A DNA stretch of 64,000 nt. Origin: a virus. Its lineage: Duplodnaviria > Caudoviricetes. Every line of letters starts with the position of its first letter. Positions within the stretch are counted from its first letter, which is position 1. This document shows, piece after piece, positions 1,282 to 49,774 of this stretch. Location: positions 2,429 to 66,428 of IMG/VR virus record IMGVR_UViG_2840851631_000003, one strand, 5' to 3'. The notes beneath the pieces are model-generated. The model was not told the origin of the DNA, searched no databases, and saw only the letters and a program-made list of their open reading frames with translations. Both the position numbers and the translations under genes were made by a program.

Positions 1282-1707
1282 ATGTTACCCATCCCATCAC
1301 TAATTCCCAAGCCTGGCGGCCAGCCGCTGCCGCTCGTGTTGTCGCCTGTGCGGGCCGGCTTCCCCTCGCCCGCCGACGACTACCTCGACGACAGCATCAA
1401 CCTGCACGACTACCTCGTGACCGACCCGCCGGCGACGTTCATCGTCCGTGTGCGCGGCGACTCCATGATCGGCGCCGGCATTGCCGCCGGCGACCTGCTG
1501 GTCGTGGATAAGGGGCTGACGGCAAACCATGGGGACATAGTGATCGCTGTGCTCGACGGCGAGTTCACCGTCAAGCGTCTGCACCGCATGCGCGGTCGCT
1601 GCGCGCTGATCGCCGAGAACCCGGCCTACCCTCCTATCCAGCTGGCCGATGGCCAGGAACTGGAGATATGGGGCGTGGTGCGCGGCTGCGTGAAACGGTT
1701 CCGCTGA
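1282..1707 (+). CDS. umuD: UmuD/ImpA-family S24 peptidase, DNA polymerase V subunit
   Basis: [12 protein letters not shown] cleavage-site region, GDSM catalytic Ser, FTVKRL catalytic Lys. Confidence 0.95.
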
Positions 1708-2963
1708 TGTTCGCCCTGGTCGACGGCAACACCTTCTATGCGTCCTGTGAGCGGGTGTTCCGGCCCGACCTCGCCGGCAGGCCCATCGTGGTGCTGAGCA
1801 ACAACGACGGCTGCGTGGTGGCCGCCAGCGCCGAGGCCAAGGCTTTGGGCCTGAAAATGTTCGGGCCATTCTTCGAGATCGCCGGGCTCTGCCGGCGGCA
1901 CAAGGTGGCGGTATTCAGTTCGAACTACGCGCTCTACGGTGATATGAGCAACCGCATGATGCGCGTGCTGTCCGAGTTCGCCGCGGGCCAAGAGGTCTAT
2001 TCCATCGACGAATGCTTCCTGGCGATGGATGGCATGTCGGATCTGGACAGCCACGGTCATCGCATCCGGCAAGCTGTGCTGCAGCGGGTCGGCATCCCGA
2101 CATGCGTCGGGTTCGGCACATCGAAAACCCTGGCAAAGCTCGCCAACCGAGTGGCGAAGAAGCGGCCAGAATGGGGCGGCGTGTTCGCATGGGACTGGCT
2201 GAGTGAGGCCGAGGCTGACACGCTGATGGAGCAAATGCCTGTTGGCGACATCTGGGGCATCGGCGGCCGGCTGACTGAAAAACTCGGTGCGATGGGCATC
2301 ACCACCGCACTGGACCTGAAGCGGGCTGATCCGCGGCGGATCAAGCGGCAGTTTTCGGTCGTGGTGGAGCGAACGGTGCAGGAACTGAACGGCGTGTCAT
2401 GTCTGGTGCTGGAGGACGTGGCGCCGACGAAGCAACAGATCATCGCATCGCGCTCGTTCAGCGAAAAAGTCACCGACCTGGCCACCCTGGCTGCTTCTGT
2501 TGCTCACCATGCCGCCCGCGGCGCTGAGAAGCTTCGCCAGCAGCGCAGCGTGGCCAAGCTGGTAGCAGTACAGATCATGACCAGCCCGTTTGCCGACACG
2601 CCACAATACCGGCCCTATATCGTCGTGCCACTTGTTCAGCCCAGCAACGACACGCTGCTGATCACCAGGGCGGCGCTGGCCGGCCTGCGCCACGTCTACC
2701 GACCGGGCTTCCGCTATCACAAAGCCGGCATCATGTTGATGGAAATCGGCGACGAAAGAGTGCAGCAGTCGGATCTGTTCGCCGCACCGCCAGACCCGCG
2801 CCGCGAGCGGTTGATGGCCACCATGGACAAGATCAACAGAGACTGGGGGCGCGGCACGCTGCGCACCGCCGCCGAGCAACTGACTGCGGACTGGCACATG
2901 CGACAAGATCTGCGCTCGTCGTGCTATACAACGCGGCTGGATGAGTTGCTGACTGTAGGATAA
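1707..2963 (+). CDS. umuC: Y-family DNA polymerase V catalytic subunit
   Basis: [35 protein letters not shown]; TGATG overlap with umuD places the start at 1707. Confidence 0.95.
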
Positions 2964-39498: not shown

Positions 39499-40010
39499 CA
39501 CTCCCCTCCCTTGATCTCGTGCGCCCGGCCGCCAGCGCCCGGCACCTTGTACGCGCTCAACTTGCACTGCCCGTTCTCGCCCGGCTTGTAGACCACTAGC
39601 ACGGCTGGGAACGGAGCCTTCGCCTTCGCCCCATCGAACCGCAGCCGCTTGTCCAGCGCGCGGATCTCCGCGGCTTTCAGCGCGTGGCGGTGGAACCAGC
39701 GGGTGTCTGTCCGCGCCGGCACCAGGCAGACCACCAGCGCGCCGTCGATGCTGGAGCGGTAGGCCTTGGCCATCCACAGCTTGATCTGGTGGCCGAACGG
39801 CGGGTTCATCCAGACGACGTCCTGGCTCCAGTCCTGGGCCAGGCCATCCTGCTCGCGCGTGAAGAACCGTTCGCACTTTGCGTTCTCCGCCGTCGCGCAG
39901 ACGTCCAACGTGAAACCGAATTCCTCGTGCAGCTGGTCGAACAGCGCCTGCGGCGTCGGCCACTCGTCCGTCTTGCTGCTGAAGTGGACCTGCTCGCTCA
40001 GATCCGCCAT
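39498..40010 (-). CDS. Phage N6-adenine DNA methyltransferase (Dam-like)
   Basis: DEWPTPQ, FTLDVCA, WMNPPFG, LVPARTDTRWF. Confidence 0.9.
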   Translation of the reverse strand: MADLSEQVHFSSKTDEWPTPQALFDQLHEEFGFTLDVCATAENAKCERFFTREQDGLAQDWSQDVVWMNPPFGHQIKLWMAKAYRSSIDGALVVCLVPARTDTRWFHRHALKAAEIRALDKRLRFDGAKAKAPFPAVLVVYKPGENGQCKLSAYKVPGAGGRAHEIKGGE

Positions 40011-40291
40011 CAGGCGGCCTCCGCGATCTTGGCTACCTGGCTCAGATGTCTGTCGCACTCGGCGTTGATGAAACGCAGGACGCGGCAATCGCCGGTGATC
40101 TTGATCAGCCGGATAAGCTCTTGCGGGGTGAAATGCTGCGGATGGGGGGAGGCCTTGTCCCGATTCACCTTGCGGCGAAACGAGTTGTAATTGATCCCCA
40201 TGTCCTCCGACAGCTGGCGCATGTTGCGGCCGGTACGGTTCAGGTACTCATCCACGGTGGCGAAAATCGCCAAGTCGATCTCTGCGAACAT
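40010..40291 (-). CDS. CII-like regulatory protein
   Basis: HTH-like, FRRKVN, FTPQEL; first gene downstream of pR. Confidence 0.65.
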   Translation of the reverse strand: MFAEIDLAIFATVDEYLNRTGRNMRQLSEDMGINYNSFRRKVNRDKASPHPQHFTPQELIRLIKITGDCRVLRFINAECDRHLSQVAKIAEAA

Positions 40292-40477: not shown

Positions 40478-40556
40478 AAACTTTAACTCTGTGCAAAACT
40501 TTTCGCAAGGCCATGCGCACTTGTTTCGCACTGCGTTTATTTCACGTGGTGCGAAA
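40478..40556 (-). promoter_or_regulatory. pR promoter with operator half-sites (OR)
   Basis: Minus strand TTGCGA-N17-TAAAGT (40508-40480); TTTCGCAC (40524) and GTGCGAAA (40549) inverted half-sites. Confidence 0.7.
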
Positions 40557-40574
40557 AATTCCTATTATTCGGGC

Positions 40575-40961
40575 ATGGGAATCGATGTTTTTGATATACG
40601 GCGTGCGAATCTTGCGCGGCTTTTGGAGCCGAGGGGATCTGCTGCGCGCATAGCCGAAAAGGTGGGCTCCTCAGCCTCCTACCTCTCTACGCTGAAGACT
40701 CTGGACAAGAAGAATCCCAATTCGCGCCGGATGGGGGACGATATGGCGCGGCGGATTGAAGAGGCGGAAGGCCTGGAATACGGCTGGATGGACAGGAGCC
40801 ACGATACTGAACAAGCGCCGGCGCCGGTGCCAGAGCAGGTCGTGATTACCGCTCAGTCTGAAGATGAGCTCGTGAAGCTCCTGCGCGAAAAGGGCGAAGC
40901 CTACGCGTTCGAACTGCTCCGCAAGGCCTTCATGGAGCAGGAAAACAAAAAGGGCGACTGA
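40575..40961 (+). CDS. CI-like HTH repressor lacking the S24 autopeptidase domain
   Basis: IRRANLARLL..AARIAEKVG...MARRIEEAEGLEYGWMD; only 128 aa; divergent from CII across OR. Confidence 0.8.
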   Translation: MGIDVFDIRRANLARLLEPRGSAARIAEKVGSSASYLSTLKTLDKKNPNSRRMGDDMARRIEEAEGLEYGWMDRSHDTEQAPAPVPEQVVITAQSEDELVKLLREKGEAYAFELLRKAFMEQENKKGD

Positions 40962-40996
40962 TGTCGCCCTGCTCTACTGTCGCCCTACACTACTCC

Positions 40997-41194
40997 TTAG
41001 GCCGCAAATCTGGCCTGTGTCAAATCTAAACTACTCACATCCCCAAACCGCACGAACTCCAGCGTCCCGTCCTTGTAACGCCTGAGCGCCACTTCAGCGA
41101 CAACCGGCCCGCGCGCGTCGAAACCAGCTCTGTGGTGATGACAGTTTGCCGCATGCACGCATGGCGCATGAGCGATATTGCAATTGCTCTGCAT
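40997..41194 (-). CDS. 65-aa small ORF, candidate antirepressor
   Basis: GGAG/AGGA RBS before the ATG; convergent with cI; lies downstream of the lux-box-like palindrome. Confidence 0.55.
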   Translation of the reverse strand: MQSNCNIAHAPCVHAANCHHHRAGFDARGPVVAEVALRRYKDGTLEFVRFGDVSSLDLTQARFAA

Positions 41195-41279
41195 TCCTAA
41201 CTCCGTTTCAGGTGCTCAATCATAGCCGTCTGTCATATGTCACTACTGACATCTTCTTGTTTTGTGGCCACATTGTCCC

Positions 41280-41297
41280 ACCTGACATCTGTCAGGT
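41280..41297. promoter_or_regulatory. Lux-box-like inverted repeat
   Basis: ACCTGACA-TC-TGTCAGGT; ACCTG/CAGGT ends as in lux/las boxes, 18 bp like the tra box. Confidence 0.6.
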
Positions 41298-41373
41298 CAT
41301 TACGAGAAATAGTAAGAAAATTTGTACACAGTAAAAATACGTATTCTTCAACACGTGATTTAAAGTTCATGCG

Positions 41374-42126
41374 CTATTCGCATGCCCCGATCTTGTACAT
41401 GAGCTGCTCAACGGTAGCCGCTTCATACGTCTCCATAAGCCGCCCAACATGGTAATCAATGGTAAAGACGCTCTTGCCAAGGGCGGCTGCCACCTCGAAC
41501 CGTTTAAAGCCTTTCTTACAATACAGTTCGATTACAGACTGTTGAATCTTGCTTGTTTTCGCAATCCGAGCGTTTGAAGCAAAAACCCTATGCGCGACCT
41601 CAGCCAGGTCGGGGAGCAGCATTTCGAGCAGATCGCGCAGCGCGCGGTCGTCTTCCACCTGGCGGCCAATCATAGACAGCACGTATCGAACGCCGGCGCC
41701 TTTGTCCGCGATATACGTCAGGCCGTGCGTCAGCCCGTGATGCTCGCAGTCCACGACGAACTTGCGTTGAGCCGGCGTCAGGCCCGGCGCATACAGCCGC
41801 TCGGACCAAACAACCGGCGCGCCGGCGAGCCCTCTTACCACGGGGTCAACTTTCACGTACCCGTGCTCTACATATCGCTGCAACCAATCCTCAGACCAGC
41901 CGTGGTTGATGTACAGCGATGGCACCTTGGTGCCGTAGAATGTCGCCAGCAGCGTCGGCGCCCCGCCAGCGATCGTGCAGATCAGCGCCAGGGCCGCATC
42001 AAGGTCATCACGCGTCCTGGCGCGCACCAACATACTGCGCAGCGCTGCAGCGGCGCAGATCGCCGCATTGATTCTGTTGTTGGAAATTGCCGCCACTTCC
42101 GGCAGCTGATCGATAGCTGTCGCCAT
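41374..42126 (-). CDS. LuxR-family regulator with AHL autoinducer-binding domain (LuxR solo)
   Basis: W81-xxx-Y85...D94-P95...W107...G135 match the spacing of the TraR AHL-pocket residues; C-terminal LuxR-type HTH. Confidence 0.85.
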   Translation of the reverse strand: MATAIDQLPEVAAISNNRINAAICAAAALRSMLVRARTRDDLDAALALICTIAGGAPTLLATFYGTKVPSLYINHGWSEDWLQRYVEHGYVKVDPVVRGLAGAPVVWSERLYAPGLTPAQRKFVVDCEHHGLTHGLTYIADKGAGVRYVLSMIGRQVEDDRALRDLLEMLLPDLAEVAHRVFASNARIAKTSKIQQSVIELYCKKGFKRFEVAAALGKSVFTIDYHVGRLMETYEAATVEQLMYKIGACE

Positions 42127-42189
42127 GAGTCCCCCTGTCTATTCAAGGTAGGACATTTTCACGACGCAGAAAACCGCGCCGCCGATTTC

Positions 42190-42525
42190 TCAGCGTGCGG
42201 TGGTCAGCAGCAGCTGAACAAGTCGCCAGACCTCATCCGGCCCTTTGCTCAGCATCTGCTCAGCTACATCCTCCAGCGAGTCCGCAGAGACGTAAGGGGC
42301 CTCCGTGTTCGCCAGCGGCGTCTTGCGCCCCTTCCCCGTCTCCAGCCACGTCAGCGACACCCCCAGCGCCCGCGCGATGCTCGGCAACTTCGTGGACTCG
42401 CGATTGCGGCCATTCTCCAGGTCGGCGACTATCGACCGACTACAGCCGGCCCGTCGGCCAAGATCTTCCTGCCGCCAGCCGCGGCGCCGGCGCTCGGCCC
42501 TGATTCGATCACCTCTTACATTCAT
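42190..42525 (-). CDS. XRE-family HTH regulator
   Basis: GDRIRAERRRRGWRQEDLGRRAG.SRS.VADLENGR...IARALGVSLTWLETGKG. Confidence 0.9.
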   Translation of the reverse strand: MNVRGDRIRAERRRRGWRQEDLGRRAGCSRSIVADLENGRNRESTKLPSIARALGVSLTWLETGKGRKTPLANTEAPYVSADSLEDVAEQMLSKGPDEVWRLVQLLLTTAR

Positions 42526-42559
42526 GCCGCATTGTCGATTACGGCAGGGATGTCATGGC

Positions 42560-42587
42560 ATCATACAAAGATGGTATTACGTCACAA
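42560..42587 (-). promoter_or_regulatory. Putative promoter of the XRE-luxR operon
   Basis: Minus strand TTGTGA-N16-TATGAT, just downstream of a terminator at ~42596-42620. Confidence 0.45.
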
Positions 42588-42796
42588 TCGGACGCAAAAA
42601 AAGCCCGCGTGTGCGGGCTGGTCTGCGGGCGCCAGGTGTTTTTATCTGAACGGGTGGGCTCAGCCTAGCGCTTGGGGTGAGTCTGCCGGTAGTGGCCGGC
42701 GTGGTCAAGGCGAAGAAGTAATGGCGAGAATGGGGTGGGGAGAGGCGGGTGGGGGGGGCTGCTGTACTTTAAATACTAATCAAGACAAAATACTAA

Positions 42797-43297
42797 CTAT
42801 TTGAATGCATCAATAAATGACTGATGCAACGCATCCATTAACTTGCTCCCAGCCAAACACTGCTTATGCCATAACTTTGCAGCCTCATATTCTTTGAATG
42901 ATTCTTCATACTCTTCAGTGCACAAGTTAAAGAAAATCGTTGACTTTCCTATCACATCATTCAAATTCAACAGCTTTTCGTCATCCCAATCACTAAGTTC
43001 ATTTCTGTATCTACGATCAAGGCGAGCAATTGCAGCATCAATCTGCATAAATATCGCCACATTTTCCAGTGTTACAATTTTTGACTTAACCGAATCACTG
43101 CCATCTAAATCCAATATTTTTTTCTGGCATATGAGTACTTCATCAATTTTCTTGCCAATTTCGGAAATCTCATCCCGAACCTCTTTCCTCCTCTCCCGCT
43201 GATTAGCTTGTCTATTTGCAACAAACCAGCCGGTCAATGGGATCAGCCAAGCAATCACCGGCCCATAATCTTTAATTACTGTCGAAGCAAATGACAC
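42797..43297 (-). CDS. N-terminally membrane-anchored protein, third gene of the AT-rich triad
   Basis: Hydrophobic IAWLIPLTGWFVA followed by a helical soluble domain. Confidence 0.7.
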   Translation of the reverse strand: MSFASTVIKDYGPVIAWLIPLTGWFVANRQANQRERRKEVRDEISEIGKKIDEVLICQKKILDLDGSDSVKSKIVTLENVAIFMQIDAAIARLDRRYRNELSDWDDEKLLNLNDVIGKSTIFFNLCTEEYEESFKEYEAAKLWHKQCLAGSKLMDALHQSFIDAFK

Positions 43298-43609
43298 TTA
43301 CGCACGCCTCCTACGCTCCGCATCAGAAATATACTGCCAAATCCTTGAGGTATACACACTAAGGCCACCAGTTATCTTTAAAGATTTTTTCAGCTCATCC
43401 TCAGTAAACCCTCCTCGAATCAACCCGCCGAATGCTTCCTCCAAAAAAGATGACCCAAACCCAATAACGTCTGACAAATCAACGGTTACTGTGTCATTAT
43501 CCTGCAAGGCTGGTATTAATAGAGAGTCTCTGAACTTACTTCCAGAATAATCACCAAACCGCCCAGCAGGCGTATCAGTAAAATCTTTAGCAATAGAAAT
43601 CATTTTCAT
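43298..43609 (-). CDS. STAS-like (DUF4325) protein
   Basis: G..FRDSLL, VTVDLSDV.GFGSSFLEEAFGGL. Confidence 0.85.
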   Translation of the reverse strand: MKMISIAKDFTDTPAGRFGDYSGSKFRDSLLIPALQDNDTVTVDLSDVIGFGSSFLEEAFGGLIRGGFTEDELKKSLKITGGLSVYTSRIWQYISDAERRRRA

Positions 43610-43620
43610 ATCCTACTTAC

Positions 43621-44634
43621 TCAAATGGATTGACCACTAACAGAAGGAATACTCCATATCACCAGCGTCCCCGGAAGCTTGGTGCTATATTTCCGTCGTT
43701 TAAAACTCTTATAACGAGCCTTGTACTCTAGGCCGCCTTTACGGCTAAGAATTATCAACCCACCATCTTTCATTTCTTTTGAAAACTCCAACATTTCCGG
43801 AAGCCCCTTCCCGCGATGCTCTAATCGTGTCCGAGTCCTCGGACTTCTGAGAGCCGTTTCAATGAGGCGGCTATCCTTCTTGTGGATCATTCTAACTATA
43901 TCAGCCCATTGCGCCGATGTTTCTAAGGACGCTGGAACGCTCATTCCGTGATCATATATGGCAACAAAAAATCTACCATCTTTGTGCTGCGAGAACATCC
44001 ACCATTTTCGCAGCTCCTCTGGCATATTTTTGCCTTCATTTCCAATATATGCATGATCCAAAACGTTAGAAACTGCCTCATTTAGGCAGCCTCCGAACAA
44101 TTCTTTTGATGGATGGTCAAGATCATTCATCAATGATAAAGTTAATGGCTTATAGATTGAAGCTTGAATACTATCGCCGCTATGATAGTGCCAGTACTTA
44201 ACCATATCATGAGTAGCTTCCAAACTTGAGTGCAAAGAAAGCTTATCAAGTATTCCTATATGCTTGAATAGTTGTGTTACAACATCATCTTTCGGCAATG
44301 CATTGCCAACGACTTTGCCGGGGTAGCAAGTGAGCCAAGTGTCAAGTTTTGACGCGAACACAAGTGTCCCGCAAGGATGCAGCCTTTCGGTATGCTTAAA
44401 GCATAACCTGATGGACCCACCTTCCCTTAGCTCCTGCTCAACCTTGTTAAAAAACTCAATTAAATCAACACGATAAGTCCCGACTGACACATCGAAACAC
44501 TTAGGAGCATTGACAATCTTACCAGAACTTGGTCTCTTTACAGACCTCTTTTGAGGGACTCGACAAAGATCCTCTTGCCCCCAAAGCGAACGCCGTATCT
44601 GACGCTCCCTATCTTTCTTAGATAGCCTTTTCAT
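43621..44634 (-). CDS. GHKL-fold ATPase / histidine-kinase-like protein
   Basis: EAVSNVLDHA (N box), IYDHGMSV (G1), RGKGL (G2), LPGT; possible N-terminal STAS-like region. Confidence 0.8.
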   Translation of the reverse strand: MKRLSKKDRERQIRRSLWGQEDLCRVPQKRSVKRPSSGKIVNAPKCFDVSVGTYRVDLIEFFNKVEQELREGGSIRLCFKHTERLHPCGTLVFASKLDTWLTCYPGKVVGNALPKDDVVTQLFKHIGILDKLSLHSSLEATHDMVKYWHYHSGDSIQASIYKPLTLSLMNDLDHPSKELFGGCLNEAVSNVLDHAYIGNEGKNMPEELRKWWMFSQHKDGRFFVAIYDHGMSVPASLETSAQWADIVRMIHKKDSRLIETALRSPRTRTRLEHRGKGLPEMLEFSKEMKDGGLIILSRKGGLEYKARYKSFKRRKYSTKLPGTLVIWSIPSVSGQSI

Positions 44635-46314: not shown

Positions 46315-46893
46315 TCAGTTCGCCGGCAGCTCGTAAACGTTGATCGCCTTCAACGCCTCCGGGTTCACCGACTCGATCTTCCCAGTGTTGTAGTCGACGA
46401 TCACCGGATGCTTTGCTGGATCGCAAGGCCCGACTTCTATCCCGCCGGACTGTGCGGTCGATGAGTGAACGATCCCCGGAACTTTAAAAATGGAGCCGGT
46501 GCTCTTGGTCGCCTGGCCAATATCGCCTGCGATTTGCCAACCCGCAACGCCAGAAGGCATGTTTCTGATGCATAAGAAGTGCTGGAAGTACCTTACCTTT
46601 CCGTTCAGGGCAACCCAATCGCTAGTGGTCAGCTTCTGGTTAATGGTAAAGGCCTTGCCTTGTACTGACTGTCCAGCCCCACTCGCAGATGAAATGACGA
46701 ATTGCTGTCCTACCTTGAGACAACCGAGCCGGTGATCCATCCAAAGGTCATCGACAGTCTTCGATTCGCACTTGAGCGGGCCATCGTAGGTAGGAACCGC
46801 GGAGACCGCAAATGCAGCCCGCGCCGCTATGGCAAACACTGTGATTACTACTCCATACTTCAGCATTGCTTCACTCCAGCTTCTTTTTTTCAT
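46315..46893 (-). CDS. Exported hypothetical protein
   Basis: Signal-like N-terminus and four Cys. Confidence 0.75.
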   Translation of the reverse strand: MKKRSWSEAMLKYGVVITVFAIAARAAFAVSAVPTYDGPLKCESKTVDDLWMDHRLGCLKVGQQFVISSASGAGQSVQGKAFTINQKLTTSDWVALNGKVRYFQHFLCIRNMPSGVAGWQIAGDIGQATKSTGSIFKVPGIVHSSTAQSGGIEVGPCDPAKHPVIVDYNTGKIESVNPEALKAINVYELPAN

Positions 46894-47543
46894 TTCAACA
46901 ACTCTCGAATCTTTATGCCTTCCAGTGTTTCATCAGCGTATTCGATAGCTAATTTTTCTTTGTAATCCGCTAGGTCTTTCCTTGCGTGCCTTTCAATCAA
47001 AGCCTTTACGGCCTCATAGTTCTGCCTCGCAGCCGCATGATGTAAAAGTGTCATGCCACCATCATCAGTTGAATCCAGATGGAGATCTGGCCTCCGCAAT
47101 GCGGCCAAGAAACCCGCCGTATCGTTCGCCTTGATACAACTAACGGCTAGAGTAAATGGTGTTTGTACCTGCGCGCCTGTCTTTGCCTCTTCCAGTTGGG
47201 CGAAGCCAAACATGATCAAGCTGCCCAGAAACGCAACCCCTGCGCCACCTAGTATCAAAGATTGGTTGTGCATTAAGCCGTAGTTGTTCACGGCATCGCC
47301 GCTGGGAGCATATACAAACGTCTGGTAAGACAAACCATACCCTGCCACGCACAGCGAGATCACCAACAAAACCAGCCCTACAACTCTCATACGCTTCGCT
47401 CCAGTAGTAGTACTTCCAAGCGCAATTATCTTTGCACGGAATAGCCGGACAAAACCCACCCCATCTTGTGACATTGGCATTTTACGCCCCATCCCCACAC
47501 GAAACGATTCGCCATCTGTTGCACTTTCACCCACAAATTTCAC
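46890..47543 (-). CDS. Membrane-anchored ankyrin-repeat protein
   Basis: Two TM segments, then DDGGMTLLHHAA...AVKALI; the start may be further downstream. Confidence 0.75.
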   Translation of the reverse strand: MKFVGESATDGESFRVGMGRKMPMSQDGVGFVRLFRAKIIALGSTTTGAKRMRVVGLVLLVISLCVAGYGLSYQTFVYAPSGDAVNNYGLMHNQSLILGGAGVAFLGSLIMFGFAQLEEAKTGAQVQTPFTLAVSCIKANDTAGFLAALRRPDLHLDSTDDGGMTLLHHAAARQNYEAVKALIERHARKDLADYKEKLAIEYADETLEGIKIRELLK

Positions 47544-47561
47544 ATCAAGCGAAATAAACCC

Positions 47562-47619
47562 TTGTGCAACATTTCGCTGAGAGTTAAAGTTTGTTCAACA
47601 CGCAGCGAAACTTTCGCAC
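47562..47619 (+). promoter_or_regulatory. pL promoter with operator (OL)
   Basis: TTGTGC-N17-TAAAGT; AGAGTTAAAGTTT (47580-47592) is the exact reverse complement of 40478-40490; TTTCGCAC at 47612. Confidence 0.7.
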
Positions 47620-48919: not shown

Positions 48920-49774
48920 CTAACCGAGCGGTCTAAGTTGGAGATTTCCGGCTTCAAGATGGGCTAGCCGAAACTCGCTGGGAGTCCGGTCGCCCAGCGA
49001 ACTGTGCGGCCTGAATTCGTTGTAATCCTGCCGCCAACGCTCGACCTTTTCGCGTGCGTCGTCCAGCGATAGAAACCAATGCACATTCAGGCACTCATCG
49101 CGCAGACTGCCGTTAAATGACTCGATAAAGGCATTATCCGTGGGTTTTCCTGGTCGTGAGAAGTCCAGTGTGACGCCTTGCTCATAGGCCCACTGGTCCA
49201 GTGCCAGGGAAATAAACTCGCTGCCGTTGTCGACCTGAATCCGTTGCGGCGTCCCGCGCAAGGCTTGCACATGCTGCATCGTAGCAACCACGTCCGCGGC
49301 TTTCAGCGCGAAATCCACCGTGATCGCCAAGCTCTCCCGGCTAAAATTATCCACCACAGTTAAGGCCCGGATTTTCTGGCCGTTGAACAGCTGATCGGCG
49401 ACGAAATCCATGCTCCAGCACGCATTCAAATTGGAGACGGCCGGCCGAGCGTGGCGATGCGCCGCTGCCACTCGCCGTTTGGGCCGCTTGCGCCGCAGAT
49501 TCAAGCCTTCCTCGCAATAGATCCGGTAGGTCTTCTTGTGATTGATCCGCCAGCCTTCGCGCCGCAGTAGGACGTGGATGCGGCGCGCGCCATAACGAAT
49601 GCGGGTGGCGGCGATCTCGCGGATTCGCTGCCGCTCCGCACGATCGTCTCGAGGGTGAGGGCGGTAAAAATAGGTAGCTTGCCGCAGCTGAATGACCGCG
49701 GTGGCGCGACGGATGCTGACGCGGTACGCGTCGATCAGGAAGTTGGCCAACTCGCGTTTGCGGGCCGGCCTCAC
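48920..49774 (-). CDS. IS3 transposase OrfB (DDE integrase core)
   Basis: WSMDF, QVDNGSEF, GKPTDNAFIESFNGSLRDE. Confidence 0.95.
   Translation of the reverse strand: MRPARKRELANFLIDAYRVSIRRATAVIQLRQATYFYRPHPRDDRAERQRIREIAATRIRYGARRIHVLLRREGWRINHKKTYRIYCEEGLNLRRKRPKRRVAAAHRHARPAVSNLNACWSMDFVADQLFNGQKIRALTVVDNFSRESLAITVDFALKAADVVATMQHVQALRGTPQRIQVDNGSEFISLALDQWAYEQGVTLDFSRPGKPTDNAFIESFNGSLRDECLNVHWFLSLDDAREKVERWRQDYNEFRPHSSLGDRTPSEFRLAHLEAGNLQLRPLG

Follow-up and report, generated by a model that had tools for sequence, protein, structure and literature searches.

A candidate quorum-sensing-controlled small-ORF antirepressor module in a lambdoid prophage of Chromobacterium

Can a prophage whose CI repressor carries no S24 peptidase domain be woken by the cell-density signals of its host? 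The question is raised by a locus in the IMG/VR record IMGVR_UViG_2840851631_000003, a provirus record of 66.4 kb, of which a stretch of 64,000 nt (positions 2,429 to 66,428, hereafter the window) was analysed. An XRE-family gene, a gene for a LuxR-type receptor of acyl-homoserine lactones (AHL) and a small open reading frame (smORF) of 65 aa follow one another on one strand and face a short cI gene on the other (Table 1). An earlier reading of the window, made from its letters and open reading frames (the sequence-only reading), had proposed an AHL-responsive switch between lysis and lysogeny at this place. The analysis described here suggests a quorum-sensing-controlled module of a transcription factor (TF) and a smORF antirepressor in a lambdoid Chromobacterium prophage, and to the full mechanism we assign a probability of roughly 0.5. 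The prophage probably uses the cell-density signals of its host to decide when to wake.

In the proposed mechanism xre and luxR would be expressed from their own promoter inside the immunity region, between the left and right operators (OL and OR). The phage LuxR, a relative of the host receptor CviR, would bind the AHL of the host and act at a cluster of TGWCA dyad and half-sites before the smORF, in this clade perhaps with the help of XRE. The smORF protein would then inactivate the S24-less CI via the helical-hairpin domain at the CI C-terminus, pR and pL would be released, and the prophage would be induced without RecA-mediated cleavage. Binding of LuxR to the dyad, activation in preference to repression, contact between the smORF protein and CI and induction as the outcome are predictions from sequence.

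The setting of the module was established from its relatives and from the surrounding genes. IMG/VR classes the record as a provirus, and annotated proteins of Chromobacterium violaceum (98%) and C. piscinae (90%) are nearly identical to the LuxR of the window. Their genes sit within contigs of 4.9 Mb and 256 kb, where they adjoin genes for RecT, CII (CP76), Dam and NinB, and the gene order RecT, cI, CII, Dam, NinB is lambdoid. Judged by these contigs and neighbours, the window is therefore an integrated lambdoid prophage of Chromobacterium. A 33-nt stretch of the OR-like region (40478-40510) recurs inverted at 47560-47592, roughly 7 kb away (79% complementary). This second copy looks like OL and, with the OR-like copy, brackets a 7-kb immunity region that contains cargo genes, xre, luxR, the smORF and cI. 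As the xre-luxR-smORF block lies between the two inverted copies, it should be expressible in the lysogen. The integrated lambda-like prophage that the sequence-only reading had supposed was thus recovered, with the module inside its immunity region.

The smORF lies 180 nt downstream of luxR and on the same strand in every locus, the intervening stretch being non-coding, and its GGAG ribosome-binding site, already remarked on in the sequence-only reading, is conserved. Codon differences in three independent pairs were predominantly synonymous (15:6, 11:3 and 17:5, synonymous to non-synonymous), and by this measure the smORF is a real gene under purifying selection, albeit one that gene callers missed in two of the related loci (L002 and L004). 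Its homologues fall into 10 small clusters, most of them without annotation, and the sole organism-named one is from C. vaccinii. In the close clade there is an N-terminal C-x-H-x3-C-H-H motif; common to all of the family are a beta-hairpin and, after it, G-(D/N)-V and a short helix. The structural model has a predicted local distance difference test score (pLDDT) of 66 overall and of 82-87 in the hairpin (residues 33-51). Searches of Pfam and PHROG returned no match to the smORF, nor did a protein atlas search return a usable one. The terminator assigned to the smORF unit has a fold energy of -18.9 kcal/mol (z -2.3).

The stretch between luxR and the smORF is the best-conserved part of the locus, at 95-99% identity between relatives compared with 73-90% inside luxR. 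The dyad reported in the sequence-only reading was found exactly where it had been placed, as were the additional TGACA/TGTCA half-sites. Chance can account for a single perfect 8+8 palindrome in 64 kb, but not for the cluster: five TGWCA half-sites fall within 80 bp (41231-41294), which is the densest such cluster of the window and was matched in none of 200 shuffles. Sites resembling TGACANNTGACAG are also enriched. Directly after the dyad comes the element GGGACAAT, which every one of the six aligned promoters keeps, slightly altered in L010 (GGGAAAAT) and L015 (CGGACAAT), at LuxR identities down to 38%. A NANNAT motif (GAAGAT, 41251-41256) follows 17-18 nt downstream of it in every promoter type, and the TGACA-N2-TGACAG part of the second half-site cluster is likewise kept in all types. 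The pattern common to five diverged promoter types is accordingly (A/G)TGAC; CTGA-N6-TCAG; GGGACAAT; ~17 nt; NANNAT; TGACA-N2-TGACAG; GGAG-N6-ATG.

Comparison of loci was used to assign the dyad to a regulator. In L016 the LuxR gene is swapped for an unrelated 102-aa helix-turn-helix (HTH) gene and direct repeats of GCGACTTAA stand in place of the TGWCA dyad, although an XRE homologue is present. In L010, L011 and L015 the dyad is present and an XRE homologue is absent within reach. The dyad therefore tracks LuxR and is a probable LuxR box, and a role as XRE operator is disfavoured by the same four loci. The TGWCA sites were also considered as CI operators. This was rejected: loci with identical TGWCA sites have different CI N-termini and different OR sequences, and the OR repeats are of the TTTCGCA type. 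The 14-bp core of the dyad resembles the CviR box, which is 16 bp (CTGNCCNNNNGGNCAG; PMC12114271) and hence 2 bp longer; no CviR-type box was found near the module. Just past the luxR stop there is a further conserved palindrome, AATACGTATT at 41336-41345 (-), followed by CTGTGTACA. It reads AAATACGTATTT in relatives, while C-type promoters have ACAGAA-TAT-TTCTGT at this place. Lying upstream of the dyad, it might serve as another regulator site.

The smORF promoter fits two readings, and they bear on an alternative in which the wiring is the same and the effect opposite. LuxR, with or without AHL, would then repress the smORF promoter from the spacer, or the smORF would stabilise lysogeny, so that high density locks lysogeny or the switch acts mainly at infection. 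Taking GACAAT as the -10 gives a sigma-70 promoter of the form (A/G)TGACN, 17-18 nt, GACAAT, in which the dyad lies inside the spacer in all promoter types (centre ~-23.5), and this would imply repression. EsaR is a LuxR-family repressor that is released by AHL, and the XRE protein is a paralogue of repressors. The xre-luxR modules of Phaeobacter prophages, moreover, favour lysogeny (PMC13345283). Yet a promoter made of GGGACA as -35 and NANNAT (GAAGAT) as -10, 17-18 nt apart, is equally conserved, and it puts the dyad centre at ~-44.5, near the class-II activator position of lux-type boxes, which would imply class-II activation. The closest relative of the phage receptor, CviR, is an AHL-dependent activator, and the simplest role for the smORF, given a non-cleavable CI and the absence of a LexA box, is that of an inducing small protein. 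We consider the repressing or lysogeny-stabilising version unlikely.

The sequence-only reading had described CI as a 128-aa repressor without an S24 domain, a description with which the present results agree. CI gave no match in Pfam, Peptidase_S24 included, and its AlphaFold model (pLDDT 81) has helices at residues 5-65 and 96-126, with the HTH at ~90 in pLDDT, then a disordered linker and two C-terminal helices. According to this model CI is an HTH, a linker and a C-terminal helical hairpin, with no S24 domain. Its N-terminal part resembles cI of H-19B and of a Pseudomonas phage, its HTH profile matches the 434 and P22 repressors, and its best match in the PDB is 5d50_A, entitled 'Repressor', which we take to be the SPC32H Rep of the Rep-Ant complex. 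The LexA box CTGT-N8-ACAG occurs once in 64 kb, inside an open reading frame at 529-544, and none is found before the smORF; the extended LexA box is at chance level in the window. LexA or SOS control of the module was dropped, no box having been found. With neither an S24 domain in CI nor a LexA box in view, induction would need an antirepressor route. As for how the smORF protein might engage CI, SinI-like mimicry of the CI C-terminal domain was tried and discarded (hhalign probability 0.2%). Two tandem 121-aa CI-type genes, both with the C-terminal helical domain, are found convergent with the smORF in L010 (L010:6150-6922) and L011 (L011:3864-4600).

A smORF that belongs to no known family, whose contact with CI is predicted from sequence and which lies in a module with variable cargo and defence-like genes in the slot just upstream of xre, might also be part of lysogenic-conversion cargo. 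The LuxR solo would then retune the host CviR regulon, or would interfere with it or with superinfection, and the smORF would do something that has nothing to do with CI. This we regard as distinctly unlikely in view of how the locus is inherited and where its binding sites lie, the densest TGWCA cluster of the 64 kb standing before the smORF with no CviR-box-like site nearby. LuxR, the regulated promoter, the smORF and a convergent, short, S24-less repressor are conserved in ~20 Chromobacterium prophage loci. Even at 33-35% LuxR identity, in distant prophages with different cargo, the order of LuxR, smORF and convergent short repressor is kept, beside Cro/YdaT or CII/Dam genes. From the xre promoter to the C-terminal part of CI the locus behaves as one conserved block, while both flanks are exchanged, namely the cargo upstream and the CI N-terminus with its operators downstream.

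Within the block, the C-terminal half of the smORF tracks the C-terminal domain of CI. The two were concordant in all six cassette types (A-F) in which both could be read; for a seventh smORF C-terminal type, that of L019, no full CI was read. Natural mosaics define what is held constant. Four different CI N-termini occur with cassette type A (window and L006; L004, L005, L007 and L009; L002; L008) and two with cassette type C (L012 and L013). One LuxR with one smORF N-terminus is found with three smORF C-termini (L012 and L013, L017, L019), and CI differs too in the two loci where it was read, that of L019 not having been read. Conversely, L016 (L016:2610-4221) has a different regulator and a different smORF N-terminus, together with a smORF C-terminal half and a CI that are the same as those of L012 (type C). 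What remains constant throughout is therefore the pairing of the smORF C-terminal half with the C-terminal domain of CI.

The antirepressor mechanism can be extended, tentatively and with some doubt, into a more general scheme. Host AHL would be the principal, SOS-independent trigger of the prophage. The N-terminal Cys/His segment of the smORF would be generic, and its C-terminal hairpin and helix would be a specificity cassette for the hairpin domain shared by CI and XRE. Immunity (the CI N-terminus), antirepression (the C-termini of smORF and CI) and sensory input (LuxR or another HTH protein) would then be three exchangeable modules.

The sensory side of the mechanism depends on LuxR. Its Autoind_bind domain (PF03472) scored 61.5 bits against a cut-off of 23 and 62.7 bits in a six-frame search. 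The hallmark pocket residues, for which TraR W57, Y61, D70, P71, W85 and G113 served as the reference, had been reported as W81, Y85, D94, P95, W107 and G135. These were all confirmed and, with S151, were found to be invariant in an alignment of 15 subfamily sequences at 25-44% identity, from which selection on the AHL pocket is implied. Pairwise they align to W84, Y88, D97, P98, W111, G138 and S155 of CviR. CviR is also the closest solved structure, with a subfamily profile E of 1.7e-37 compared with 1.5e-16 for RhlR; the pairwise match to CviR is weak (E 2e-14) and covers residues 73-233 only. W77 replaces CviR Y80 in 14 of the 15 sequences. The HTH has the Gln for the conserved Glu that the sequence-only reading had pointed out (IQQSV, where CviR has SQREY). 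The subfamily profile nevertheless aligns with the CviR HTH over its full length and finds NarL and GerE at ~1e-9, and distant members of the subfamily carry PF00196 (GerE).

The subfamily is small and prophage-borne. An exhaustive search returned ~15 close representatives, with every organism-named member from Chromobacterium, and all 11 matches in the viral collection lay in proviruses. By these distributions and alignments LuxR is related to the host receptor CviR, though diverged, and is confined to prophages; its sequence predicts AHL binding. The absence of luxI noted in the sequence-only reading extends to the 66-kb provirus record, in which no Autoind_synth match was found. This negative is meaningful since the same search detected luxI, with a luxR convergent beside it, in two Chromobacterium genomes. 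Both also have a LuxR solo of the phage type, so that they hold cviI/cviR-like pairs plus the solo. That LuxR has lost AHL sensing and, ligand-independent or responsive to another molecule, acts as an ordinary phage regulator of the smORF is improbable, for while the W77 replacement, the divergent HTH and a family of only ~15 representatives, all phage-linked, would fit such a loss, the seven pocket residues are invariant despite low identity and luxI was present in both genomes searched of a host genus that is Chromobacterium wherever named.

The part played by XRE is less constant. XRE has the plan of CI-type repressors in alignment, an N-terminal HTH and a ~35-aa C-terminal domain, and shares 38% identity over 87 aa with CI of L013 (E 1e-14); on these grounds it is a paralogue of CI-type repressors. 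In L021 and L023 the convergent repressor that faces the smORF is itself of the XRE type. The sequence-only reading had xre co-transcribed upstream of luxR. Gene identity and position were borne out, xre lying 63 nt upstream on the same strand; co-transcription is plausible, because this spacer holds a small hairpin only and no scanned terminator. The candidate xre promoter is conserved within the C. violaceum/piscinae group, with a TGACA half-site just downstream of it at 42551. The xre-luxR operon arrangement was found in the window, the C. violaceum/piscinae clade, L013 and L019. No XRE homologue was found near the LuxR of L010, L011 or L015, and upstream of LuxR in L010 and L011 there is instead rRNA/tmRNA-like structured sequence. 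In L012 cargo genes (NmrA-like and SnoaL-like) are inserted between the XRE homologue and luxR (L012:2302-2571), and in L014 the XRE homologue is fused to or disrupted by a gene for a small membrane protein (L014:1078-1485). XRE has therefore been uncoupled from LuxR repeatedly; judging from these loci, part of the family lacks it, and much of the family can probably do without it. The further suggestion that the divergent HTH of LuxR explains a need for XRE was not supported, XRE being missing beside the same Gln-variant LuxRs in L010 and L011.

Several points weigh against the antirepressor mechanism, in addition to the promoter reading with the dyad in the spacer. Binding and expression are predicted properties. 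The structural model of the smORF protein is only moderately confident, and the smORF has no detectable similarity to known antirepressor families. The HTH of the window LuxR gave no Pfam GerE match. Unlike in all characterised TF-smORF modules, the smORF is co-oriented with the regulator genes and downstream of them, and in the Phaeobacter prophages the xre-luxR module drives lysogeny, not lysis (PMC13345283). Finally, co-inheritance of smORF and CI is confounded by adjacency, as the two genes end 20-35 bp apart. Adjacency could yield part of the observed pattern, which is thus support for a smORF-CI partnership and not proof of it.

Table 1. Features of the module and its surroundings, with positions in the window.
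Feature	Position	Strand	Basis
CII (CP76)-family regulator, first gene of the rightward early operon, divergent from cI	40010..40291	-	Phage_CP76 E 6.8e-11; phrog_101 CII-like activator
OR-like operator region and PRM-like promoter (TTCACG, 16 nt, TATTAT)	40478..40568	+	promoter scan
CI-type repressor, 128 aa	40575..40961	+	phrog_12107 and phrog_5736 repressor families, E ~1e-15
Intrinsic terminator of the smORF unit, overlapping the cI 3' end	40951..40970	-	8-pair stem then TTTTTGTTTT (terminator scan)
smORF, 65 aa, candidate antirepressor	40997..41194	-	GGAG six nt before ATG; codon-difference ratios
Second TGWCA cluster, TGTCAG-TAG-TGACA-TA-TGACAG on the minus strand, between promoter and ribosome-binding site	41230..41251	.	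half-sites 41231, 41238, 41247
Conserved GGGACAAT directly after the dyad, -35 (GGGACA) or -10 (GACAAT) of the smORF promoter	41272..41279	-	promoter alignment
18-bp dyad ACCTGACA-NN-TGTCAGGT, core CTGA-N6-TCAG, probable LuxR box	41280..41297	.	read directly; window form ACCTGACA-TC-TGTCAGGT
LuxR-type AHL receptor solo, 250 aa, CviR-related, divergent C-terminal HTH	41374..42126	-	Autoind_bind E 8.4e-17
XRE-family protein, 111 aa, CI-type repressor paralogue	42190..42525	-	HTH_3 E 3.9e-11
Candidate sigma-70 promoter of xre(-luxR): TTGTGA, 16 nt, TATGAT	42560..42587	-	promoter scan, 9/12 matches
Intrinsic terminator splitting the module from variable upstream cargo	42602..42619	-	7-pair stem then TTTTTTGCGT (terminator scan)

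The remaining features concern the borders of the module and the rest of the window. An inverted repeat lies at 40524-40556 within the OR-like region, and the PRM-like -10 ends 7 nt ahead of the cI ATG, so that the cI mRNA is probably leaderless. Downstream of the CII-family gene there follow Dam and then replication genes. At the other end, the terminator just upstream of the xre promoter is kept in relatives. Directly upstream of the xre promoter stands a low-GC block of three cargo genes (42797-44634, -), encoding a 337-aa protein with a weak HATPase_c_2 match, a 103-aa DUF4325 STAS-like protein and a 166-aa protein without a match. The same slot holds DUF6414, a ParA-like protein of 427 aa and small membrane proteins in relatives, and it is probably a hotspot for defence genes or morons. 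A 217-aa ankyrin-repeat protein is encoded at 46890-47543 (-), within the immunity region and shortly downstream of the OL-like site. In the leftward early region, at 48920-49774 (-), lies an inserted transposase of insertion-sequence type (rve, rve_3, HTH_21). At the start of the window (1282-2963, +) there are umuD-like (S24 peptidase type) and umuC-like genes, with the perfect palindrome AATTTGTACAAATT just upstream of the former.

On the repressor side the module has precedents. Non-cleavable repressors that are inactivated by antirepressors are known from Gifsy-type prophages and from the Rep-Ant pair of SPC32H, and SinR-SinI is an architectural analogue. CI of the window is like these a short, S24-less repressor with an HTH and a small helical C-terminal domain. 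Gifsy and 186 Tum-type antirepressors are under LexA control, whereas no LexA box was seen in the Chromobacterium module.

Of the known quorum-sensing phages, Apop and ARM81ld of Aeromonas are the nearest in design (PMC6456758, PMC9894119, PMC10432266). In these phages AHL-bound LuxR acts jointly with XRE to switch on a smORF, whose product inactivates cI and leaves it uncleaved (PMC10432266, PMC9894119). Here too a phage xre-luxR operon without luxI is adjoined by an unannotated small open reading frame that has its own regulated promoter, the module is close to cI, the host makes AHL, and the same logic is proposed, with AHL acting via LuxR (and XRE) on a smORF and CI being inactivated uncleaved. 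The sequence-only reading had called the module equivalent to such known LuxR/XRE-small ORF modules and distinct from them in sequence. The equivalence holds for a TF gene beside a smORF with its own promoter near cI and fails for orientation, the smORF being counter-oriented in Apop and ARM81ld and co-oriented and downstream in Chromobacterium. The distinctness was upheld, since tblastn of LuxR against 50,697 phage records gave no match and detected no relation to Apop or ARM81ld; blastn of the region against the phage collection found nothing either. Apop and ARM81ld are linear plasmid-like phages, compared with an integrated lambdoid prophage of a betaproteobacterium here. The Chromobacterium CI lacks an S24 domain, so that an SOS route in parallel is probably absent; XRE is paralogous to CI, and much of the family probably does without it; and the smORF is a mosaic whose C-terminal half is matched to CI.

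The VP882 system of VqmA-phage and Qtip (PMC10432266) resembles the module in that a phage homologue of a quorum-sensing receptor of its own host drives a small cI antirepressor. It differs in using VqmA and 3,5-dimethylpyrazin-2-ol (DPO) where LuxR and AHL would serve here, in having qtip counter-oriented and in that VP882 cI is also SOS-cleavable. With CviR of C. violaceum (PDB 3QP1, 3QP5, 3QP6) the phage LuxR shares the two-domain fold family and the conserved W84, Y88, D97, W111 and S155. W77 in place of Y80, Gln in place of Glu in the HTH and its status as a prophage-borne solo set it apart, as does its probable box, CTGACA-N2-TGTCAG (14-18 bp), where that of CviR is the 16-bp CTGNCCNNNNGGNCAG (PMC12114271). 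The hth/xre-luxR-luxI switches of Phaeobacter prophages (PMC13345283) likewise have xre-luxR operons in prophage switch regions and a dependence on XRE that varies between phages. They carry their own luxI and no separate cI, the autoinducer drives lysogeny, and the target is a counter-oriented hth gene.

A published description of the Chromobacterium family was not found in the literature. Eavesdropping by phages on host quorum sensing has been shown experimentally in few systems, namely VP882, ARM81ld/Apop and the Phaeobacter prophages. If the antirepressor mechanism is true, the family would extend such eavesdropping to integrated lambdoid prophages. It would also bring in a betaproteobacterium in which quorum sensing is classically studied, and for which AHL biosensor strains and cviI mutants already exist. 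The repressor would be one that RecA cannot cleave, and quorum sensing might be the main route of induction and not a side route. The natural mosaics combine a given smORF C-terminus with different CI N-termini, or a given LuxR with different smORF C-termini, or have another HTH protein where LuxR would stand; they would be ready-made swaps for mapping how a small antirepressor recognises its repressor.

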